Shown: in pieces, positions 1-7,994 of the stretch | Numbering within the stretch: position 1 is the first letter of the stretch | How the letters are laid out: each line of letters opens with the position of its first letter | From: Planctomycetota bacterium | Lineage (GTDB): Bacteria > Planctomycetota > UBA1135 > UBA2386 | Reading direction: 5' to 3' | Assembly (NCBI GenBank): GCA_947501605.1 | Contig: CANMWZ010000065.1 | Location: 1 to 10,831 of the forward strand | DNA: 10,831 nt | Made by a program: the position numbers and the translations under genes | The notes under the pieces: model-generated | Told to the model about the DNA's origin: nothing | Seen by the model: only the letters and a program-made list of their open reading frames with translations | Databases searched by the model: none

Positions 1-2
1 AG

Positions 3-2897
3 GCAACGAAGTGGAACTTCGCAATCCTGACCTACGGCAACCTCGCCGAGACCAAGCGGTGCTTGCGCACGCTGGCCGAGACGATGAACGAGCCGTTCTC
101 GGTCTTCGTCGTCGACAACGCCTCGACAGATGGCACGCAGCAGTGGTTGAAGATGCACGCGGCCGAGTGGCTCCACTGGCAGTGCAACACTCAGAACCGC
201 GGTGTGCCCGGCGGGCGCAACGACCTCCTCGACTTCGTCCTCCCGCACCTCCGGGCAGAGGACTGGGTCGTGTTCTGCGACAACGACCTCGAGTTCGTCC
301 CGGGTTGGCTCGAGCACTTCCGCCGCGCGATGGGGGAGTTCCCTGGTGCGCGTCTGTTCGGGCAGGTCGGTCACTTGATCGAGGTTCGCGACGATCGCCG
401 CATTCTGCTGCCGCCATCGCACACGACTTCGCCGGTCGATGTGTTGAGCGGGGGCTTCGCGTGCATGGTCCGCGCCGACACAGCGGCGGCTATCGGTCCG
501 TTCGACGAGAAGCTCGGCCTGTTCTGGCACGAGGACGACGACTACTGCGTGCGCGCTCTGCAACTGCAGGTCGAGATCGTGGCCGTGCCACGCGCTGGCA
601 TCGTGCACCACGAACATGCGACCGGCGTGGCGACGTCAGGGCTGCGCGAAGGTGGGTCGCGGCGCAACTTGGCATACCTCGTGCGCAAGTGGCGCGAGCT
701 CGGGTTCGTCGACGACGGTGGTTGGATCCGGCAGCAGTCCGGCATCTACCGCGAGCCGTCGATCCGCATCGAACTGCAGCGCCGTTCCGGGAGCCCGCGT
801 CCGATCGGTCGCGCTGAGTTCGCGACGGCGTACCGCGTGCTCGAGACGCTGGTCGCGGCGCCTGACCCGGCGAAGACGTTCGACGCCGCCCGCGAGCCGC
901 TGCCGCCATGCTGGAGTGCCTTCGTGCAGTGGAACCTCGAGGTGGCGCGCGCTGGCGGTGCGAAGGAGTTGATCGATCGACTGCTCCGCATCGTCGAGAT
1001 CACCGAGAGGACCCGCTACGCAGCGCTGTTGAAGCCGATGCTCCGCGTGCCCGATTCGCGCGCCGAAGGACTCGTCGGCCACGGTGTGTGCTCGAGCTCG
1101 GACTTCGACGATCCACAGTGGCTCCTCGCCGCGGACGAACTCGACCCCATGCACTGCGCGCGCGACCCGCAAGCGCGCGATCGAGTGTTCTGGGAAGAGG
1201 TCTCGCTCGTGCTGTCGCTGCAGCGAAGCGGTGCCGTTCGGCCGAACAGCACGGTGTTGTGCGCGGGCGAAGTTCGTCCTCGCGTCATCGACTGGCTGGC
1301 GGCGCGCGCGCGGTCGGTGGTCGAATTCGATCCGGTTGCGCCACCGCCGGCGCACTCGTGCGATGTCGTGGTCTGTGTTCGTGCGCATTCGGCGAACGCG
1401 CTCGCGCTCATCCGACACTGCGCCACAGAGGGCGCGACGTTCGCGTTCGCCGGCGACGTGGTTCTCGATGGCGCACCGTCGCGAAGCGAGCCGCAGCCGA
1501 TGCAACTCGAGCACGAACTCGGCCCGCGTGTCGGCGCCGAACCGATCGGGCCGGTTCGCACGGCCGTCGACGACGCAGTCTTGGAAGCGTGTGCCGACGG
1601 CGCTCGAAACGAACACCGATTACCCCGACTCTGTTCCTATTCGCAGCGACTGGTAACGAGCTTCGTTCTCCTCGCGCGTTGCGCGAAGGCCGCGGCACCG
1701 GCGACAGCCGTGCTGACCCCGGCCCGGACGTCGACTGCGACCATCGGCATCGATCTCCGCACCGTCGCCTACGCCGACTCGACGGCGCGTGGCATCGGGC
1801 ACTACACGATCCATCATCTTGCGGCCGTCGCGGCGCGCGCGCCAGATCTGCACCTGCGGTGCTATCTCCCGTACGATGCCGAGATGCCGGCGGCGCTCCG
1901 GCTGCCGAACGTCAGCCGCGCCGAGGTCGACGACTATCGGCCGACGGAAGTCGATCTCGTGCACCTTCCGGATCCGATGAATCTGTCCATCGGTTTCGAT
2001 TCGCCGCTGCGGACCTTCCGCCACGAACGTACGACGGTCACGTTCCACGATCTCACACCGCTGCGGCACTACATCGCGCAGTGGCCGCTGCAGAATCGCG
2101 AGGCGTATCTCGACCGCGTTCGCCAGATCGAGAAGTCGGCAGCGCACCTCTTGTGCAACTCGCAGTTCACCGCCGACGACGTGGTGGCGACGTTGCATCG
2201 CGATGCGGCGAAGGTCACCCCGATCCTCGCGGGCCTCAACGGGGCGCGCGGTGCCGTGGCGGCGAGCCTTCAGGAGAACGTGCGCCGTCGCCTGGGCATC
2301 CGCGGTCCGTTCGTGCTCCACATAGGCGCGCTCGATCCGCACAAGAACTTCCCGGCGGCACTGTCGGCGTTCTTGCAGGTGCGCGGCCGGCGGCCGTTTC
2401 AGCTGGTCGTGGTCGGTGCGGTCGATCCCGGCATCGAGTATTTCGCTTCGATGTGCAGCAAGAAGCGCATCCCCGATGTGGTCTTCACCGGCTACCTGCC
2501 GCGATGCGACCTCGATGCGCTCTACGCGTCGGCGGTGGCGCTGTTGTTCTTGTCGAAGAGCGAGGGCTTTGGCTTCCCTCTGCTCGAAGCGATGGCGGCG
2601 GGGTGCCCAGTCATCGGCAGTGACGTCACCTCGCATCCGGAGGTAGTCGGGGGAGCCGGCATCCTCGTGCCACTCGCCACGGCAGCCGAGAGTGCCGCGA
2701 CCGCGCTGATGCACCTTCTGTCGGATCCCGCACACGCGGCGCGACTGCGCGCGGCCGGTTCGGCGCAGGCCGCAACGTTCACCTGGGACGCCGTCGCCGA
2801 CCGCACGCTACAGGTCTGGCGGTTGATGCTCGGTGTCCGCGAACTCGCGCTGCCGGCGTTCCGCGCAAAGCTCGCGCCACTGCCGGTCGGGCTGTAG
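3..2897 (+). CDS. Multidomain glycosyltransferase (GT2 + methyltransferase-like domain + GT4), 5' end outside the window
   Basis: The frame is open from position 3 (ATKWNFAILTYGNLAETKRCL, a typical first GT2 strand), so the TTG at 63 is not the true start. GT2 motifs: VVDNASTDGT, VFCDND (DxD) and HEDDDYCVR. GT4/GT-B part from about 1740: TFHDLTP, HIGALDPHKN and EGFGFPLLEAMAAGCPV (EX7E). Stop TAG at 2895-2897. Confidence 0.92.
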   Translation, partial: ATKWNFAILTYGNLAETKRCLRTLAETMNEPFSVFVVDNASTDGTQQWLKMHAAEWLHWQCNTQNRGVPGGRNDLLDFVLPHLRAEDWVVFCDNDLEFVPGWLEHFRRAMGEFPGARLFGQVGHLIEVRDDRRILLPPSHTTSPVDVLSGGFACMVRADTAAAIGPFDEKLGLFWHEDDDYCVRALQLQVEIVAVPRAGIVHHEHATGVATSGLREGGSRRNLAYLVRKWRELGFVDDGGWIRQQSGIYREPSIRIELQRRSGSPRPIGRAEFATAYRVLETLVAAPDPAKTFDAAREPLPPCWSAFVQWNLEVARAGGAKELIDRLLRIVEITERTRYAALLKPMLRVPDSRAEGLVGHGVCSSSDFDDPQWLLAADELDPMHCARDPQARDRVFWEEVSLVLSLQRSGAVRPNSTVLCAGEVRPRVIDWLAARARSVVEFDPVAPPPAHSCDVVVCVRAHSANALALIRHCATEGATFAFAGDVVLDGAPSRSEPQPMQLEHELGPRVGAEPIGPVRTAVDDAVLEACADGARNEHRLPRLCSYSQRLVTSFVLLARCAKAAAPATAVLTPARTSTATIGIDLRTVAYADSTARGIGHYTIHHLAAVAARAPDLHLRCYLPYDAEMPAALRLPNVSRAEVDDYRPTEVDLVHLPDPMNLSIGFDSPLRTFRHERTTVTFHDLTPLRHYIAQWPLQNREAYLDRVRQIEKSAAHLLCNSQFTADDVVATLHRDAAKVTPILAGLNGARGAVAASLQENVRRRLGIRGPFVLHIGALDPHKNFPAALSAFLQVRGRRPFQLVVVGAVDPGIEYFASMCSKKRIPDVVFTGYLPRCDLDALYASAVALLFLSKSEGFGFPLLEAMAAGCPVIGSDVTSHPEVVGGAGILVPLATAAESAATALMHLLSDPAHAARLRAAGSAQAATFTWDAVADRTLQVWRLMLGVRELALPAFRAKLAPLPVGL

Positions 2898-2922
2898 CTG
2901 CGAGCGCACGGAGCGTGCCCGT

Positions 2923-3276
2923 TCAGAGCGCGGGCGCGCCCTTCTTGACGAACGCGTAGATCGCGGCGCGCACGAGCGGCGGGACGTCGGTGAAGGCGAT
3001 GGCGACGTGATGCTCGCGCCCGGTCGCGTCCACCTTGGTGCAACGGAGGACGTGACCCAGGATCGGAGGCTTGCCAGCCGCTCCGTCGATCGCGAGCTCG
3101 ATGCGGAGCTTTCCGCGCATCGGTAGCTTCTGCTTGCAGCGGACGGCGATGCCGAGTTCGGACACATCGCTCGCCGTGGCGGTGAGCACTTCGTCGGCGG
3201 TCGACAAGGCGACCGCGAACGCGGCGCGCGCGCGCGGCCGACGACGGCGTTCGCTGGGAGGTAAGGCTGGCTGCAC
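2923..3276 (-). CDS. Stand-alone PilZ domain protein (putative c-di-GMP receptor)
   Basis: This is the C-terminal ~117 aa of the long 2923..5058 ORF. It has RxxxR (ERRRRPR) and DxSxxG (DVSELG), followed by a beta-barrel pattern (GHVLR...VAIAFTDV). Start is uncertain: GTG at 3276 (AGGT upstream) or ATG at 3315. Confidence 0.85.
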   Translation of the reverse strand: MQPALPPSERRRRPRARAAFAVALSTADEVLTATASDVSELGIAVRCKQKLPMRGKLRIELAIDGAAGKPPILGHVLRCTKVDATGREHHVAIAFTDVPPLVRAAIYAFVKKGAPAL

Positions 3277-3363
3277 GCGACGAAACCTATCGAGCCTACG
3301 ACAGAGGACAACCATGAGCTGGTGCGCGGTCGAGAACGAGGTGCCGCAAGTTGCCGGAGAATC

Positions 3364-3390
3364 TGTCACAATCGGCGATGGCACCGGTTG
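3364..3390 (+). promoter_or_regulatory. Conserved motif copy 1 (TGTCAC-aatcgg-CGATGGCAcCGGTTG), candidate ECF promoter or operator of the kinase-ECF operon
   Basis: Matches the minus-strand element at 7839-7865 at 20 of 21 non-spacer positions with identical spacing. Ends 12 nt before the kinase ATG. Confidence 0.65.
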
Positions 3391-3402
3391 AAGGCCGCCA
3401 CG

Positions 3403-5817
3403 ATGACGAAGGACGACGCACAGGACGGAAATCAGGGACCCGCCCCGGGGTCGAACGGCAACAACCCGCCGAGCGAGCGCACGCGTTTCCTCATGCGGTT
3501 GCTCGACGACCAGGAACGCGACCGTCTGGAGCCGGTCGAGCGCTACCTCGCCGAGTTCGCGAGTATTCCCGACTTCGTTCGCAGCGAGCACGCGAACCTC
3601 GTCCGTGACTCCCTTGGTTCGACGGCGGGCGGGACGCACGCCATGGTGCCGGGCCGCATCGGTCGTTACGAACTGCTGCGCGTGATCGGGGAAGGCGGCA
3701 TGGGGCGCGCGTGGTTGGCGCGCGACCCGCAGGTGGGGCGCGAGGTCGTGGTCAAGGCCCTGCGCGGCAGCGAGGGCCCGAACGATCCGGGTCACGAGCG
3801 ACTGCGGCGCGAAGCGCGCGTGCTCGGCCGGCTCGACCACAAGGCGCTCGCCGAAGTGCTCGACATCCTCGACGTCGATGACGGCGTGTACTTGGTGTTG
3901 CCGTTCTACGAAGGGCGCACGCTGGGCGCGCACATCGGAGCGTTGCGCGCGCAGAGCGAACGAGGCGGCGTGCCGCGGAGTCCTTGGGTTCTCTACGACG
4001 AAGAGACGCCAGCGGACCGCGCCAAGGCGCTGCGGCGGTTGTTGACCTTCTTCGCCGAGATGGCGGACGGTCTGCACACGGCGCACGTGGCGGGCATCGT
4101 CCATCGCGATCTCAAGCCGCACAACGTCATCGTGCAGCCGGACGGGAGTCCGATCGTGCTCGACTTCGGACTCGCGCTGCCGATTGACGACGAGCGGTTG
4201 ACGCTGCCTGGCGAGGTGTTGGGCACACCGATGTACATGTCCCCGGAGCAGATCGATGGCAGCAGGCCGGTCGACGCGCGCTCGGACGTCTATGCGCTCG
4301 GGGTTCTGATGTACGAAGCCCTGACCCTGGTGCACCCGTTCGCGGGGGCGCCGGGACGCGAGGCGACGTTCCACCGCGTGCTGCGCGGCGATGCCGTGCC
4401 GCCGCGTCGGCATCAACCGCTGATCCCGCGCGATCTCGACGCGGTGGTGCAGAAGGCGATGGATCGCGATCCGGCGCGTCGCTACACGGATGCCGCGGCG
4501 GTGGCGCGCGAGCTGCGTAGGGTCATCGAGTTGGAACCGACGGAAGCGCGGCCGATCTCGGGGATCACGAGGTGGATGCGCAAGGTCGTGCATCGGCGGC
4601 GGATGTTCTCGATGGCGGCCGGGATGGTGCTCGTGCTGGTCGGGGCGCTGTGGTGGCAGGACTCGCTGGCTGAGTCGAGGCGTGACGAGGAGAGGGCCCG
4701 AAGGCTTCGGGTCTTCGCGGATCAGGAGAAGATTCTCGATTGGCGCACCGATCCGGATGTCCTGCCTTCTGTGCGCAACGTGCTCGATGCCCGCGACGCG
4801 CTCGACCCGCTCGTTCGCGAAGATCTGGACCCGATCCTGCTCGCGAGGCTCGACGACATCGTTGACCTCGTCCTGTCCCACCCGACACGCGCCGGTGCAG
4901 CCCCGTTCCTCGATTGCAAGGCTTCGCTGTATCTCGAGCTCGGGTTCGAGCGCGTCGCCGAGGTGACTGCCGACTACGAGCGATTGGTCGACTCGTGGCC
5001 CGCTGCGGAACGCGCGTCGCCGCGGTTTGTCTGGACCTGCTGGCATGCGGCGAACCACGCGCTGGAAACCGCGCAGGATCCGAAGGCGGGCATTGCCTTC
5101 GTCGAACGCGGGCTAGAAGCCCTCGCTGCCATGCCGGAGTGGACGGAGGAGGCGCGGAGCGACTTGGTGTCCTCTGCAGAGTTCTTCGTGACCCAGACAA
5201 AGCGTCCGTCGGCGGGTTCGTTCGCGGACACCCAGGCCGAAGGGCTTCTGCTGCGAGCCGGCTGCATCGTTGCACGGGATGGTGTGTTGGCCGACGTCCG
5301 GGCACTCGACGAGGCGATCGCAATGCTGCGCAATGTGGACAACGTCCATCGGCTGGCCAACGCGCTCGCGCTACGTGCGCGGCTGCGCCTCTTGCGCCGC
5401 GAACCCGGCGATGCTGCCGTGGATGTCGCCGAAGCGCGCGATCTCTACCAAGTCGGTTTCACGAACCTGCGGCCGGGGACTGAAGGTGACCAGGAACCAG
5501 ACAAAGCCGGGGTGGCGAGCATGCGGATGATGGAGGCCTGGATCTCGATGCAACGCGGGCAGATCGCCGAGGCACTGGCAGAGCTGATGTCGCTCATCGA
5601 GGAGATGCGAGGTGGCGATGGTCTGACTCGGATGAACCCGGTCCTCAGCGACGTTCCGCTGCTGGCTGCGAAGTGCTTGCTCGATGTCGGCGGTGACGCC
5701 GCACAGCTTGCCGTGATGTGCGACCACCTTCACGCGGCCAAGGTCTTCTATGAGTTCCGTGGTATGACTGAGCGCCTCAAGCAGGCTGATAACAGCATCA
5801 AGGAACTCCGGGAGTGA
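3403..5817 (+). CDS. Membrane-anchored Hanks-type serine/threonine protein kinase with helical/TPR-like C-terminal domain (804 aa)
   Basis: Kinase motifs: IGEGGMG (G-loop), VVVK, HRDLKPHN, DFG, GTPMYMSPEQ, SDVYALG. One hydrophobic segment MFSMAAGMVLVLVGALWW (4603-4656) is preceded by basic residues (RKVVHRRR). Ala/Leu-rich helical C-terminus. ATG at 3403 (GAAGG 8 nt upstream) is preferred over GTG at 3322. Confidence 0.95.
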   Translation: MTKDDAQDGNQGPAPGSNGNNPPSERTRFLMRLLDDQERDRLEPVERYLAEFASIPDFVRSEHANLVRDSLGSTAGGTHAMVPGRIGRYELLRVIGEGGMGRAWLARDPQVGREVVVKALRGSEGPNDPGHERLRREARVLGRLDHKALAEVLDILDVDDGVYLVLPFYEGRTLGAHIGALRAQSERGGVPRSPWVLYDEETPADRAKALRRLLTFFAEMADGLHTAHVAGIVHRDLKPHNVIVQPDGSPIVLDFGLALPIDDERLTLPGEVLGTPMYMSPEQIDGSRPVDARSDVYALGVLMYEALTLVHPFAGAPGREATFHRVLRGDAVPPRRHQPLIPRDLDAVVQKAMDRDPARRYTDAAAVARELRRVIELEPTEARPISGITRWMRKVVHRRRMFSMAAGMVLVLVGALWWQDSLAESRRDEERARRLRVFADQEKILDWRTDPDVLPSVRNVLDARDALDPLVREDLDPILLARLDDIVDLVLSHPTRAGAAPFLDCKASLYLELGFERVAEVTADYERLVDSWPAAERASPRFVWTCWHAANHALETAQDPKAGIAFVERGLEALAAMPEWTEEARSDLVSSAEFFVTQTKRPSAGSFADTQAEGLLLRAGCIVARDGVLADVRALDEAIAMLRNVDNVHRLANALALRARLRLLRREPGDAAVDVAEARDLYQVGFTNLRPGTEGDQEPDKAGVASMRMMEAWISMQRGQIAEALAELMSLIEEMRGGDGLTRMNPVLSDVPLLAAKCLLDVGGDAAQLAVMCDHLHAAKVFYEFRGMTERLKQADNSIKELRE

Positions 5818-6398
5818 CCGACGAATCGACCCAGATCCTGGTTCGTGCGATCCAGAACGGCGACGCCGCCGCGAAGGAGATCCTGTTCGCGCGCTATCTA
5901 CCTCGCGTCAGTCGCATGGTCGCGCTCGAACTCGGCGTCTCGCGCTACTCGCTGCCGGCCGAGGCCGAGGACCTGGTTCAAGACGCGATCCTGCGGGCAC
6001 TGCGCGCGCTGCCGGACTTCGAAGTTCGCAGTCCCGGCGCGTTCGCCGCTTGGTTTAGCCGCATCGTCAAGAACTGCGTGCTTCAAGCGCGCGAGAAGCA
6101 CGGCGGACACAAGGCGCGCATGCTGTGGCAGCGCTACGGCGACCTGGATCTGTCGGAGTCGTTCTTCGACGGCAACCACGAGACGCCGAGTCAGATACTG
6201 ACGAGCGCCGAGGCCAACCGTCAGGTCGAAGAGGCGCTGCTGGCGCTGCCGACGCTGTACCGCCGCGTTCTGTCGTTGCGGCATCTCGGCGGCGCGACGC
6301 ATGCGGAGATCGCGCAGGAGCTCGGGCGGACCGAGGTCAGTTGCCGCAAGCTTGCGCAGCGCGCCATCGAGATGCTGCGCGCGGAACTCGCGAAGTGA
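5814..6398 (+). CDS. ECF-type RNA polymerase sigma-70 factor
   Basis: Region 2: GDAAAKEILFARY, AEDLVQD, FAAWFSRIVKN. Region 4 HTH: THAEIAQELGRTEVSCRKLAQRA. 194 aa. The GTG start overlaps the kinase TGA (GTGA, 5814-5817). Confidence 0.95.
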   Translation: MTDESTQILVRAIQNGDAAAKEILFARYLPRVSRMVALELGVSRYSLPAEAEDLVQDAILRALRALPDFEVRSPGAFAAWFSRIVKNCVLQAREKHGGHKARMLWQRYGDLDLSESFFDGNHETPSQILTSAEANRQVEEALLALPTLYRRVLSLRHLGGATHAEIAQELGRTEVSCRKLAQRAIEMLRAELAK

Positions 6399-6430
6399 GG
6401 ATCGCTGGTTCCGCGCACAGTCCTGGGCTT

Positions 6431-7810
6431 TCAGAAGCCGACCTTCGCGCGGATGCCGTTCGACATCAGCAGCGGGATGGCGGTGGGCAGGCTCGTGTCG
6501 AGGGTCGCGCCTTGGAGCCCGAAGCGAATACCCGGCAGCGCGCTCGACGGCGGCACCGAGAACTGCGTCACGCTCTGGCCCGCGCCGTCCGCGACCGACC
6601 ACAAGACTGCGTCGTCGGAGACCAGGAGGCTGCAGCCGTTGGGCGCGCCGACCGTGTTGAGGCGGAACGGCAGCGGCTGTCCGCCGAGGCAGGTGCTGCC
6701 GAAGCCGAGCACCAGCAGGGACACTCCGTTCGGCACTCCGCCGCCGGCGGTCACGGACATCGTGCTCGTGTAGACCGGCGCCGTGGCCGTCAGAGTCGGA
6801 GCGATGCTGCCGTTGGCACAGCCTGCCCCGAAGGGAATCGCACTGGCACCGGGTGAGATCCAACTGTCGCCGCGCATAGGCGGAGTGAGGTCGTTGCCGC
6901 CGAAGAACACGACTTGGTCGCGCACGGGATCGTGGGCCATCCCGAAGAGGAAGCGCGCCGGCATAGGCGGTGTCACGGCCTGCACCCAACCTCCGTCCAC
7001 CGTGTAGGTCCAGGTGTCGTTCAAGACTGTGGCAGAGCTGCTGATGCCGCCGTGGAGGACCACAACTTGGTTGCCCGCGTCATAGACCATTTGGTGGTAG
7101 CGACGAGCCGTCGGACGTGGTGTGCGCGTGTCCTCCTGCCACGTCGAGCCGTTGAACCACCAAGTCCGGTCCACCTCGGCATTCGCGGAGCCCGAGACGT
7201 TGCCGCCGAAGAGCACGAAGAGGCCGCTGACGGGGTCGAACACCATCGCCGGGCCGAGTCCGGCCGTTGGGCCGGTCGCAGCCAGCGGCGTCCAGGTGAG
7301 CCCATTCCATCGCCAGGTGTCGGTGTGGTGCGGGCCATTGGAGTTGCCGTTGGGCGTGCCGCCGAAGAGGTAGGTCTCGCCAAGTCCGTAGGCCATGGCG
7401 CCCAGGCAGCGTGCCGAGGGCGGGTTTGCGGGCGTTTGCGGCAGCCACTGCGTGCCGTCCCATTCCCAGGTCTCGTCGTTGCAGCTGCCGCCTGGATTGA
7501 TGCCGCCGAACATGACGACGCGGCGGCTCAGCAGGTTGGTCGCAAAGTTCTGAGCGGTGCGGGGCGATGGGATCGAGCCGGCGGGCGACAGCGTCTGCCA
7601 TGTCTGGCCGTCCCACGCGTAGGTGTCGTTCGCGAAGCCGCTCGTGAGTGCGCCGCCGAATCCCAGCAAGCGCTGGGTGACTGGGCACCACGTCAGGCTG
7701 TTGAGCTCGCGCGGCGCGGGCCCTGCGAGGTCGGTCGGGCGCCAATCGATCTGGGCGGGGAGAGTGCTGCCGCAGACGGCGGCAGTGAACAGTGCGAGGA
7801 CGTTCTTCAT
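6431..7810 (-). CDS. Secreted Kelch-repeat (six-blade beta-propeller) protein with an additional ~140-aa C-terminal domain (459 aa)
   Basis: ATG at 7810 with AGGAG 5 nt upstream. Signal-peptide-like MKNVLALFTAAVCGSTLPA|Q. Six Kelch-type repeats of the form P..R....(F/H)GG....(D/E)TW.W.G..W. Confidence 0.9.
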   Translation of the reverse strand: MKNVLALFTAAVCGSTLPAQIDWRPTDLAGPAPRELNSLTWCPVTQRLLGFGGALTSGFANDTYAWDGQTWQTLSPAGSIPSPRTAQNFATNLLSRRVVMFGGINPGGSCNDETWEWDGTQWLPQTPANPPSARCLGAMAYGLGETYLFGGTPNGNSNGPHHTDTWRWNGLTWTPLAATGPTAGLGPAMVFDPVSGLFVLFGGNVSGSANAEVDRTWWFNGSTWQEDTRTPRPTARRYHQMVYDAGNQVVVLHGGISSSATVLNDTWTYTVDGGWVQAVTPPMPARFLFGMAHDPVRDQVVFFGGNDLTPPMRGDSWISPGASAIPFGAGCANGSIAPTLTATAPVYTSTMSVTAGGGVPNGVSLLVLGFGSTCLGGQPLPFRLNTVGAPNGCSLLVSDDAVLWSVADGAGQSVTQFSVPPSSALPGIRFGLQGATLDTSLPTAIPLLMSNGIRAKVGF

Positions 7811-7838
7811 GGATGCTCCTGTGAGAGATGCATCATTC

Positions 7839-7865
7839 CAACCGATGCCATCGGGGCGCGTGACA
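7839..7865 (-). promoter_or_regulatory. Conserved motif copy 2 (TGTCAC-gcgccc-CGATGGCAtCGGTTG), candidate ECF promoter or operator of the Kelch gene
   Basis: Same motif and spacing as 3364-3390. Ends 28 nt before the Kelch ATG, leaving room for the AGGAG site. Contains the palindrome CCGATG-G-CATCGG. Confidence 0.65.
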
Positions 7866-7875
7866 CAGAAAGCCT

Positions 7876-7917
7876 CCGACGCATCGCAGCCGCTCTCCAG
7901 TAGCCACGATGCGTCGG
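7876..7917 (-). repeat. Inverted repeat / RNA hairpin (possible terminator or stabiliser)
   Basis: Perfect 11-bp arms CCGACGCATCG (7876-7886) and CGATGCGTCGG (7907-7917). On the minus strand the stem extends inward through G-U pairs and is followed by AGGCUUUCUG. Confidence 0.6.
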
Positions 7918-7950
7918 TTCGCGCCCTGCTCGCGCAGTGCGAGCGAACCA

Positions 7951-7977
7951 GAATCGCCCACGCCGACCCGCGTGACA
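7951..7977 (-). promoter_or_regulatory. Weaker third motif copy (TGTCAC-N15-CGATTC)
   Basis: Same TGTCAC hexamer and 15-nt distance to a CG.TT element, but the CGATGGCA core is absent. Confidence 0.35.
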
Positions 7978-7994
7978 GAAAATCTGTCGCGCTG

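Follow-up and report, generated by a model that had tools for sequence, protein, structure and literature searches.

The stretch of DNA analysed here (the window: 10,831 nt, positions 1–10,831 of contig CANMWZ010000065.1 of a Planctomycetota bacterium) carries an operon for a Hanks-type Ser/Thr kinase and a sigma factor of the extracytoplasmic function (ECF) class, a convergent gene for a secreted Kelch protein, and a short motif that precedes both transcription units and is the subject of this report. The source genome (G000) is a 4.65 Mb assembly of 89 contigs, 91% complete. The features at the locus are as follows.

3356–3390 (+), predicted promoter in front of the kinase-ECF operon: -35 TGTCAC at 3364–3369 after an A/T-rich flank, -10 GGTTG at 3386–3390; matrix score 30.5, the best in the genome
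3403–5817 (+), Hanks-type Ser/Thr receptor kinase of 804 aa, made up of a helical N-terminal extension (about aa 23–70), kinase domain (aa 89–366), one transmembrane (TM) segment (aa 401–419), periplasmic TPR domain
4660–5814 (+), the kinase's periplasmic TPR superhelix, whose homologue in relatives is the N-terminal part of a secreted TPR-CHAT protein
5814–6398 (+), ECF sigma factor, 194 aa: GTG start overlapping the kinase stop, sigma2.2 EAED, sigma4.2 xRKxxxR
6431–7810 (−), secreted Kelch beta-propeller protein, 459 aa, with a signal-peptide-like start; predicted target
7839–7873 (−), proximal predicted Kelch promoter: -35 at 7865–7860, score 26.6, 20-nt leader with AGGAG
7876–7917, 11-bp perfect inverted repeat (arms 7876–7886 and 7907–7917), between the two Kelch promoters and inside the predicted leader from the distal one
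7951–7985 (−), distal third copy of the motif: TGTCAC at 7977–7972, -10 GATTC, score 24.8, third in the genome

Motif copies and genes of the window

The first-pass annotation drew attention to two 27-mers, at 3364–3390 (+) and 7865–7839 (−). Both are present: they are identical at 21 of 27 positions without gaps, 20 of the 21 positions that had been marked as fixed (upper-case) hold, and the distances to the start codons are as had been described, 12 nt from the end of the first copy to the kinase ATG (3403) and 28 nt from that of the second to the Kelch ATG (7810). Their likeness alone is modest. The pair ranks only 16th in length among 1082 inverted pairs in the window, and among 3000 pairs of 150-nt windows drawn at random, 5 attained 21/27 identity; the pair is regarded as real because of its position and conservation, and not from similarity alone. 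A scan of the assembly with the 21 shared positions returned these two copies as the only perfect matches, one match with three mismatches and five with four.

The third copy (7977–7951, −), which the first-pass annotation does not mention, is found 17 nt past the stop codon of the ABC-F gene, with the Kelch promoter 112 nt downstream of it. Two hairpins part the tandem Kelch promoters. Rfam gave no matches for the leader containing the inverted repeat, and no clear second copy of the hairpin leader was seen in G000 (best other match E 0.015) or in the fetched loci. A sigma70 scan returned no sites, and no terminator was found between the convergent sigma and Kelch genes.

Pfam searches confirmed the Pkinase, Sigma70_r2 + r4_2 and Kelch assignments, and also placed a divergent PilZ gene, a glycosyltransferase, an ABC-F protein and an inositol-phosphate synthase in the window. 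The catalytic motifs of the kinase are all intact, its N-terminal helical extension is conserved and contains no invariant Cys or His, and one hydrophobic segment was found in each of the four kinases scanned. Linker residues S116, P125 and S126 of the sigma factor are invariant, position 124 is S or T, and the xAED of sigma2.2 is kept, A51-E52-D53 being invariant in all 13 sigmas.

Conservation of the motif in related genomes

A single-sequence protein search recovered 37 proteins of at least 53% identity, followed by a gap. Orthologous sigmas (55–74% identity) were found in 13 of the 91 genomes of the family and in none of 248 genomes from other families of the order. Genome G001 (62% complete) has a kinase ortholog that runs off the contig end. 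More loci were gained by a metagenome scan, three of which (L237, L241 and L247) are long and new and served as held-out loci.

Fifteen sites from eight genomes share a core in which an A/T-rich flank is followed by [T/C]GTCAC, a purine and, at constant spacing, TT, although the sites were chosen by GTCAC..TT and those columns are therefore circular. The core pattern, A/T-rich-[T/C]GTCAC-N16/17-nnTT, has standard ECF -35/-10 geometry, and the spacing before the -10 hexamer is 15 nt in 11 of the 15 sites and 16 nt in the other four. The kinase gene is preceded by a site in all 12 loci that have its 5′ end on the contig; G097, G099, G102, G103, G106, L238, L239, L243–L246 and L248 are omitted, as their contigs stop short of it. 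The secreted gene next to the operon has a site in 10 of the 11 loci that could be evaluated. The start codon follows the -10 hexamer by 8–12 nt in all 12 kinase promoters, a positional constraint that is independent of the criterion by which sites were picked. The target gene with its site is convergent in G000, G002, G003, G004 and L237, and divergent in G005, G010, G101, G063 and L247; L241 is also divergent. Five divergent loci have both sites, standing back to back at distances of 27, 34, 35, 36 and 52 nt. The target site is present whatever the fold of the target (Kelch, C-type lectin or beta-helix).

A site matrix was built from 13 sites outside G000, the sites of G000 being left out of training. 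In G000 its three top matches are those of the window, at 3364 (+), 7865 (−) and 7977 (−), with scores of 30.5, 26.6 and 24.8. The next score (19.0) falls within a gene and the maximum in the reversed genome is 17.6, while weak matches of at least 13 number 30 in G000 and 32 in the reversed genome. A genome-wide, position-independent repeat, which the first-pass annotation had named among the cases that would undo its reading, is rejected. In held-out L237, a near copy of G004, the best matches are the kinase and Kelch promoters (31.1 and 27.7); the L241 kinase promoter scores 30.3 and a second Kelch gene there 12.4, and the target promoter of L247 scores 20.2. None of eight more distant kinase-ECF or ECF loci has a site scoring at least 11. 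Across the family, 12 of the 14 matches to a strict pattern lie in 6 of the 14 system-bearing genomes and two in the other 77, a count that is partly circular because the pattern was selected after the motif hits were known. Conservation and matrix ranking both back the earlier proposal of a bipartite ECF-type promoter common to the kinase-ECF operon and the Kelch gene.

Judged from the distribution of sites, the regulon in G000 is local. Of the 25 sigma-like hits in G000 other than the window sigma, none shares its sigma4.2 RK and none has a site close to the start (best score 10.0), and neither of the two other evaluable Kelch genes carries a site. A small local regulon of this kind resembles the local ECF regulons in Todor 2020 (PMC7776599), where the figures given have 47.8% of ECFs controlling three or fewer promoters, often nearby. 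The predicted regulon is wider in congeners and takes in unlinked Kelch genes: in G003 and G004 together, with three 5′-truncated genes dropped, 5 of 14 evaluable Kelch genes from the protein search have a site, as do 3 of 12 among the unlinked ones (the highest null score in 400 windows being 12.5). Two further cases, G003:C122 and G097:C152, came from motif searches. A conserved lipoprotein gene has the motif upstream in G001:C17 (L129), G004:C9 (L131) and G003:C343 (L151); its G000 ortholog, on C42, has no site upstream.

The Kelch orthologs of congeners have two propellers (L031 5073–7355, L032, L033 and L237 9669–11,969) and that of the window has one. Its C-terminal domain (6431–6850, −) is without a Pfam match, is possibly a sorting or anchoring domain, and recurs in six other G000 loci, with similar-looking C-termini on other targets.

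A second contig of the assembly, G000:C77 (L269), represents at 1–5779 an alternative haplotype of the flexible island at 2418–7994 of the window. The glycosyltransferase-PilZ flank is 78% identical and the ABC-F end identical, with different cargo between them. Only the first kinase codons are kept, without the start codon, and the promoter site has decayed to a score of 4.9. The same haplotype is found in runs X1, X2, X4 and X6, two of which continue past its ABC-F end. Decay of the site where the cassette is absent, a single event, lends weak support to the promoter reading. In the window, the flank consists of a fused GT2-GT4 glycosyltransferase gene (63–2897, +) and a stand-alone PilZ gene (2923–3282, −) divergent from the kinase, both of which are conserved in the genus.

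Promoter register, sigma residues and alternative readings

The pan-ECF consensus reads TGTAACC from -36 to -30 and CGTC from -13 to -10 (Table S1 of Todor 2020, PMC7776599). By this numbering TGTCAC occupies -36 to -31 and GGTT -13 to -10, so that transcripts are predicted to start near 3399 (+), 7830 (−) and 7942 (−). The assignment of TGTCAC as the -35 in the first-pass annotation is retained; its -10 (CGGTTG after a 15-nt spacer) gives way to GGTT(G), 16 nt after TGTCAC, and its expected starts at 3396 and 7833 move to 3399 and 7830. The start codons of the 12 kinase genes then fall at predicted +1 to +5, that of the window at +5, and the kinase mRNA is likely to be leaderless or nearly so. 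Targets have longer predicted leaders, that of the window Kelch gene being 20 nt with AGGAG.

Residues of the sigma factor agree in part with these bases. Invariant R178 corresponds to RpoE R171, for which Dataset S3 of Todor 2020 gives a -31C preference of 0.88, and invariant R183 to RpoE R176, a -35 determinant; both fit GTCAC. Residue 61, mostly basic, is the equivalent of RpoE K56 and fits -11T. From the sequence comparisons as a whole, the motif is likely, and we hold this with good confidence as the best overall explanation, to be the promoter read by the ECF sigma factor at 5814–6398; its own kinase-sigma operon would then be under its control, as would, from two tandem copies, the convergent Kelch gene.

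Besides the circular columns of the site set and the closeness of L237 to G004, several points weigh against this explanation. The first divergent Kelch gene of L241 has no site scoring at least 11, and the kinase promoter of L247 scores only 11.2. In five control genomes a loose pattern stays at background (23 matches versus 43 in the reversed sequences). Q91, the equivalent of RpoE N84, predicts CA or CG at -13/-12 (0.32 and 0.25) where GG is seen (0.014), these preferences having been measured in other sigmas, and the K at the equivalent of RpoE S172 is uninformative for base prediction. The RNA evidence consists of contigs in three runs (X9, X12 and X17) with pieces of kinase, sigma or Kelch genes, which carry no information on strand, start or level and could come from DNA carry-over. 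The motif is also near the pan-ECF consensus TGTAAC/CGTC, making cross-talk by another sigma possible.

It is improbable, though the most serious of the alternatives, that the ECF-type promoter is read by one or more other, unlinked ECF sigmas, with the neighbouring sigma no more than a target. TGTCAC(A) is also listed as the -35 of ECF41 and ECF103 in PMC7826278, there are the 25 other sigma-like hits in G000 to choose from, and the code of the N84-equivalent residue misfits the bases. However, no other G000 sigma has the site upstream, the site is absent at the eight distant loci, and the matches to the strict pattern, with the circularity already mentioned, are concentrated (12 of 14) in system-bearing genomes.

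An operator for a dimeric transcription factor, with its site either at CGATGGCA in the spacer or at the back-to-back GTGAC...GTCAC of divergent loci, is very improbable. It would explain the 8-nt spacer identity in the window, the GGC at spacer positions 17–19 in 11 of 16 genus sites, and the two GTCAC in opposite sense at divergent loci. Yet CGATGGCA is exact in only 2 of the 16 genus sites, both within the window, and the GTCAC halves are separated by 4.5 kb in the window and by 27, 34, 35, 36 or 52 nt in divergent loci; the open reading frames read in these loci include no such regulator, and the constant spacing from site to kinase start is promoter behaviour. Since the spacer sequence is not conserved, no operator is needed; the spacer operator is rejected, and the special meaning that the first-pass annotation had attached to the spacer is lost with it. 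The GGC may reflect a weak extended -10 preference.

Sigma54 promoters have GG at -24 and GC at -12. That the two copies are a functionless product of chance or recent duplication, as the frequency of 21/27 matches among random window pairs (5 of 3000) might allow, or a sigma54 promoter, given the TGGCAC/T in both copies that resembles a -24 box, is barely credible: the motif is kept with diverged spacers in five genera, and the -12 GC is missing from all 16 genus sites, by which the sigma54 promoter is rejected. Nor is the recent promoter duplication that had been suggested needed, as both classes of site are present in all five genera readable on both sides.

If the motif is the promoter of the neighbouring sigma factor, the sigma holoenzyme would bind TGTCAC (-36 to -31) and melt GGTT (-13 to -10). 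Target mRNAs would carry ribosome-binding leaders, unlike the near-leaderless kinase mRNA. Upstream of this, a periplasmic protein or peptide would bind the TPR domain of the kinase, which would autophosphorylate and then activate the sigma factor, either via the conserved linker serines or by release from the N-terminal helical extension of the kinase, and not via a sigma2.2 threonine. Positive feedback would yield more kinase, sigma and secreted targets. By analogy with the linker sites of EcfK (see below) and with ECF283, the candidate phosphoacceptors are S116, S126 and S/T124 of the sigma linker.

Fusion of the TPR domain and relation to known systems

In other genera, the gene between kinase and sigma encodes a protein of about 1000 aa whose start is signal-like and which contains a CHAT domain. 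The C-terminal domain of the kinase aligns with the N-terminal part of this TPR-CHAT protein (hhalign 99.6%, E 4.9e-24, 285 columns), and a profile of TPR-CHAT finds the kinase TPR domain as its sole match in G000, with no other TPR-CHAT copy. The domain is predicted by AlphaFold2 (AF2; pLDDT 87.6) to form a TPR superhelix, which matches LGN, Rap and NprR (Z 19–20, root-mean-square deviation 4–5 Å over about 285 residues). Among the fold matches listed, separase has a Z of 17.5, and DdvA and Csx29 are absent, a comparison made weak by the repeat fold; ESM Atlas matches for the TPR part are all below 0.9 and provide a lead only.

In the sigma tree, the seven fused-type sigmas group together on a single branch (100/98), which lies within the 11 that have a separate TPR-CHAT and is sister to L241 (89/77). 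Read from this tree, the separate TPR-CHAT protein is ancestral, and fusion of its TPR half with the kinase took place once, in the genus of the window, where the protease was lost. The TPR-CHAT protein of G005 (L034 6650–9535) has Tyr at the presumed catalytic His of the H-x-A-C-H motif (HLACYA), and the protease was probably inactivated there. From the nesting of the fused branch and the G005 Tyr, it follows that circuit and promoter stayed while the protease was lost once and probably inactivated once. In L238 (751–1662), the slot has no Kelch gene: the convergent ABC-F gene comes right after a fused-type kinase and sigma.

PknS/EcfK of Xanthomonas citri and PknT/EcfP of Vibrio parahaemolyticus, of group ECF43, as they are described, resemble the system of the window in the adjacent Hanks kinase, its N-terminal helical extension, single TM segment and periplasmic TPRs, and the lack of an anti-sigma; the account of EcfK in PMC13147305 places phosphosites in its linker (T104–S110). 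ECF43 sigmas lack DAED, and a Thr in sigma2.2 serves as their switch (PMC8999054, section 3.4), whereas the window sigma keeps xAED, its targets are secreted Kelch, lectin or beta-helix proteins, and the ancestral system includes a TPR-CHAT partner. Because xAED is kept in 13 of 13 sigmas, the Thr switch does not apply, and membership of ECF43 is rejected, though the adjacent TM Hanks kinase without an anti-sigma fits.

ECF59, ECF61, ECF62 and ECF217 share with the window the phylum, close relatives of the window being named Planctomycetota by their sources, a TM kinase as neighbour and the lack of an anti-sigma. The kinase stands at +1 in ECF59, ECF62 and ECF217, whereas here it is at -1 (this genus) or -2 (ancestral). 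That of ECF62 has an N-terminal zinc finger and/or WD40, neither of which occurs here, where a TPR fold is found, and that of ECF61, at -2, has five or more TM helices against one. The group descriptions in PMC7826278 give no full promoter for these four and call those of ECF61 and ECF62 'not conserved'; its supplement records 'TC in -35' for ECF59. The window sigma scores 96 against TIGR02984 (cutoff 184) and, unlike ECF41, has no C-terminal SnoaL extension, its 194 aa comprising sigma2 and sigma4 only. ECF54 adjoins TPR-CHAT genes as here, but is actinobacterial, with subtilase and carboxypeptidase neighbours and no kinase in its description.

DdvA/DdvS of Myxococcus xanthus share with the present system a periplasmic TPR-CHAT proposed as an ECF sensor. 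As presented in PMC11506125, DdvA joins a zinc anti-sigma, a TM segment and TPR-CHAT in one chain, without a kinase, and proteolysis is proposed; here, in contrast, kinase, TM segment and TPR are joined without CHAT, and TPR-CHAT is a separate secreted protein or is cut to its TPR part.

The accounts in PMC7826278, PMC8999054 and PMC11506125 already cover planctomycete ECFs linked to kinases, ECF regulons that are small and autoregulated, and an ECF sensor of TPR-CHAT type. A literature search found no operon of kinase, secreted TPR-CHAT and ECF, no such fusion and not this promoter, the groups of Wiegand 2020 lying outside that search. That study is said to add 30 planctomycete ECF groups, which could include this clade. 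It is possible, although we lean somewhat against it, that the system is a three-part receptor circuit not described before, made up of a secreted TPR-CHAT co-receptor, a membrane Ser/Thr kinase and a DAED-keeping ECF sigma, with a leaderless autoregulated mRNA and interchangeable secreted propeller, lectin or beta-helix targets; the fusion with protease loss and the His-to-Tyr change would then mean that the TPR part is the sensor and that caspase-like cleavage is dispensable.

As an element, the promoter is of a kind to be expected. How DAED-keeping kinase-linked ECF sigmas are activated is stated to be open in section 3.4 of PMC8999054, and the predicted combination of a defined promoter, sigma, kinase and target would allow a test of this in a heterologous reporter. 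The naturally occurring fusion of kinase and TPR would represent an evolutionary split of TPR-CHAT into sensor and protease, and may bear on DdvA-like signalling.

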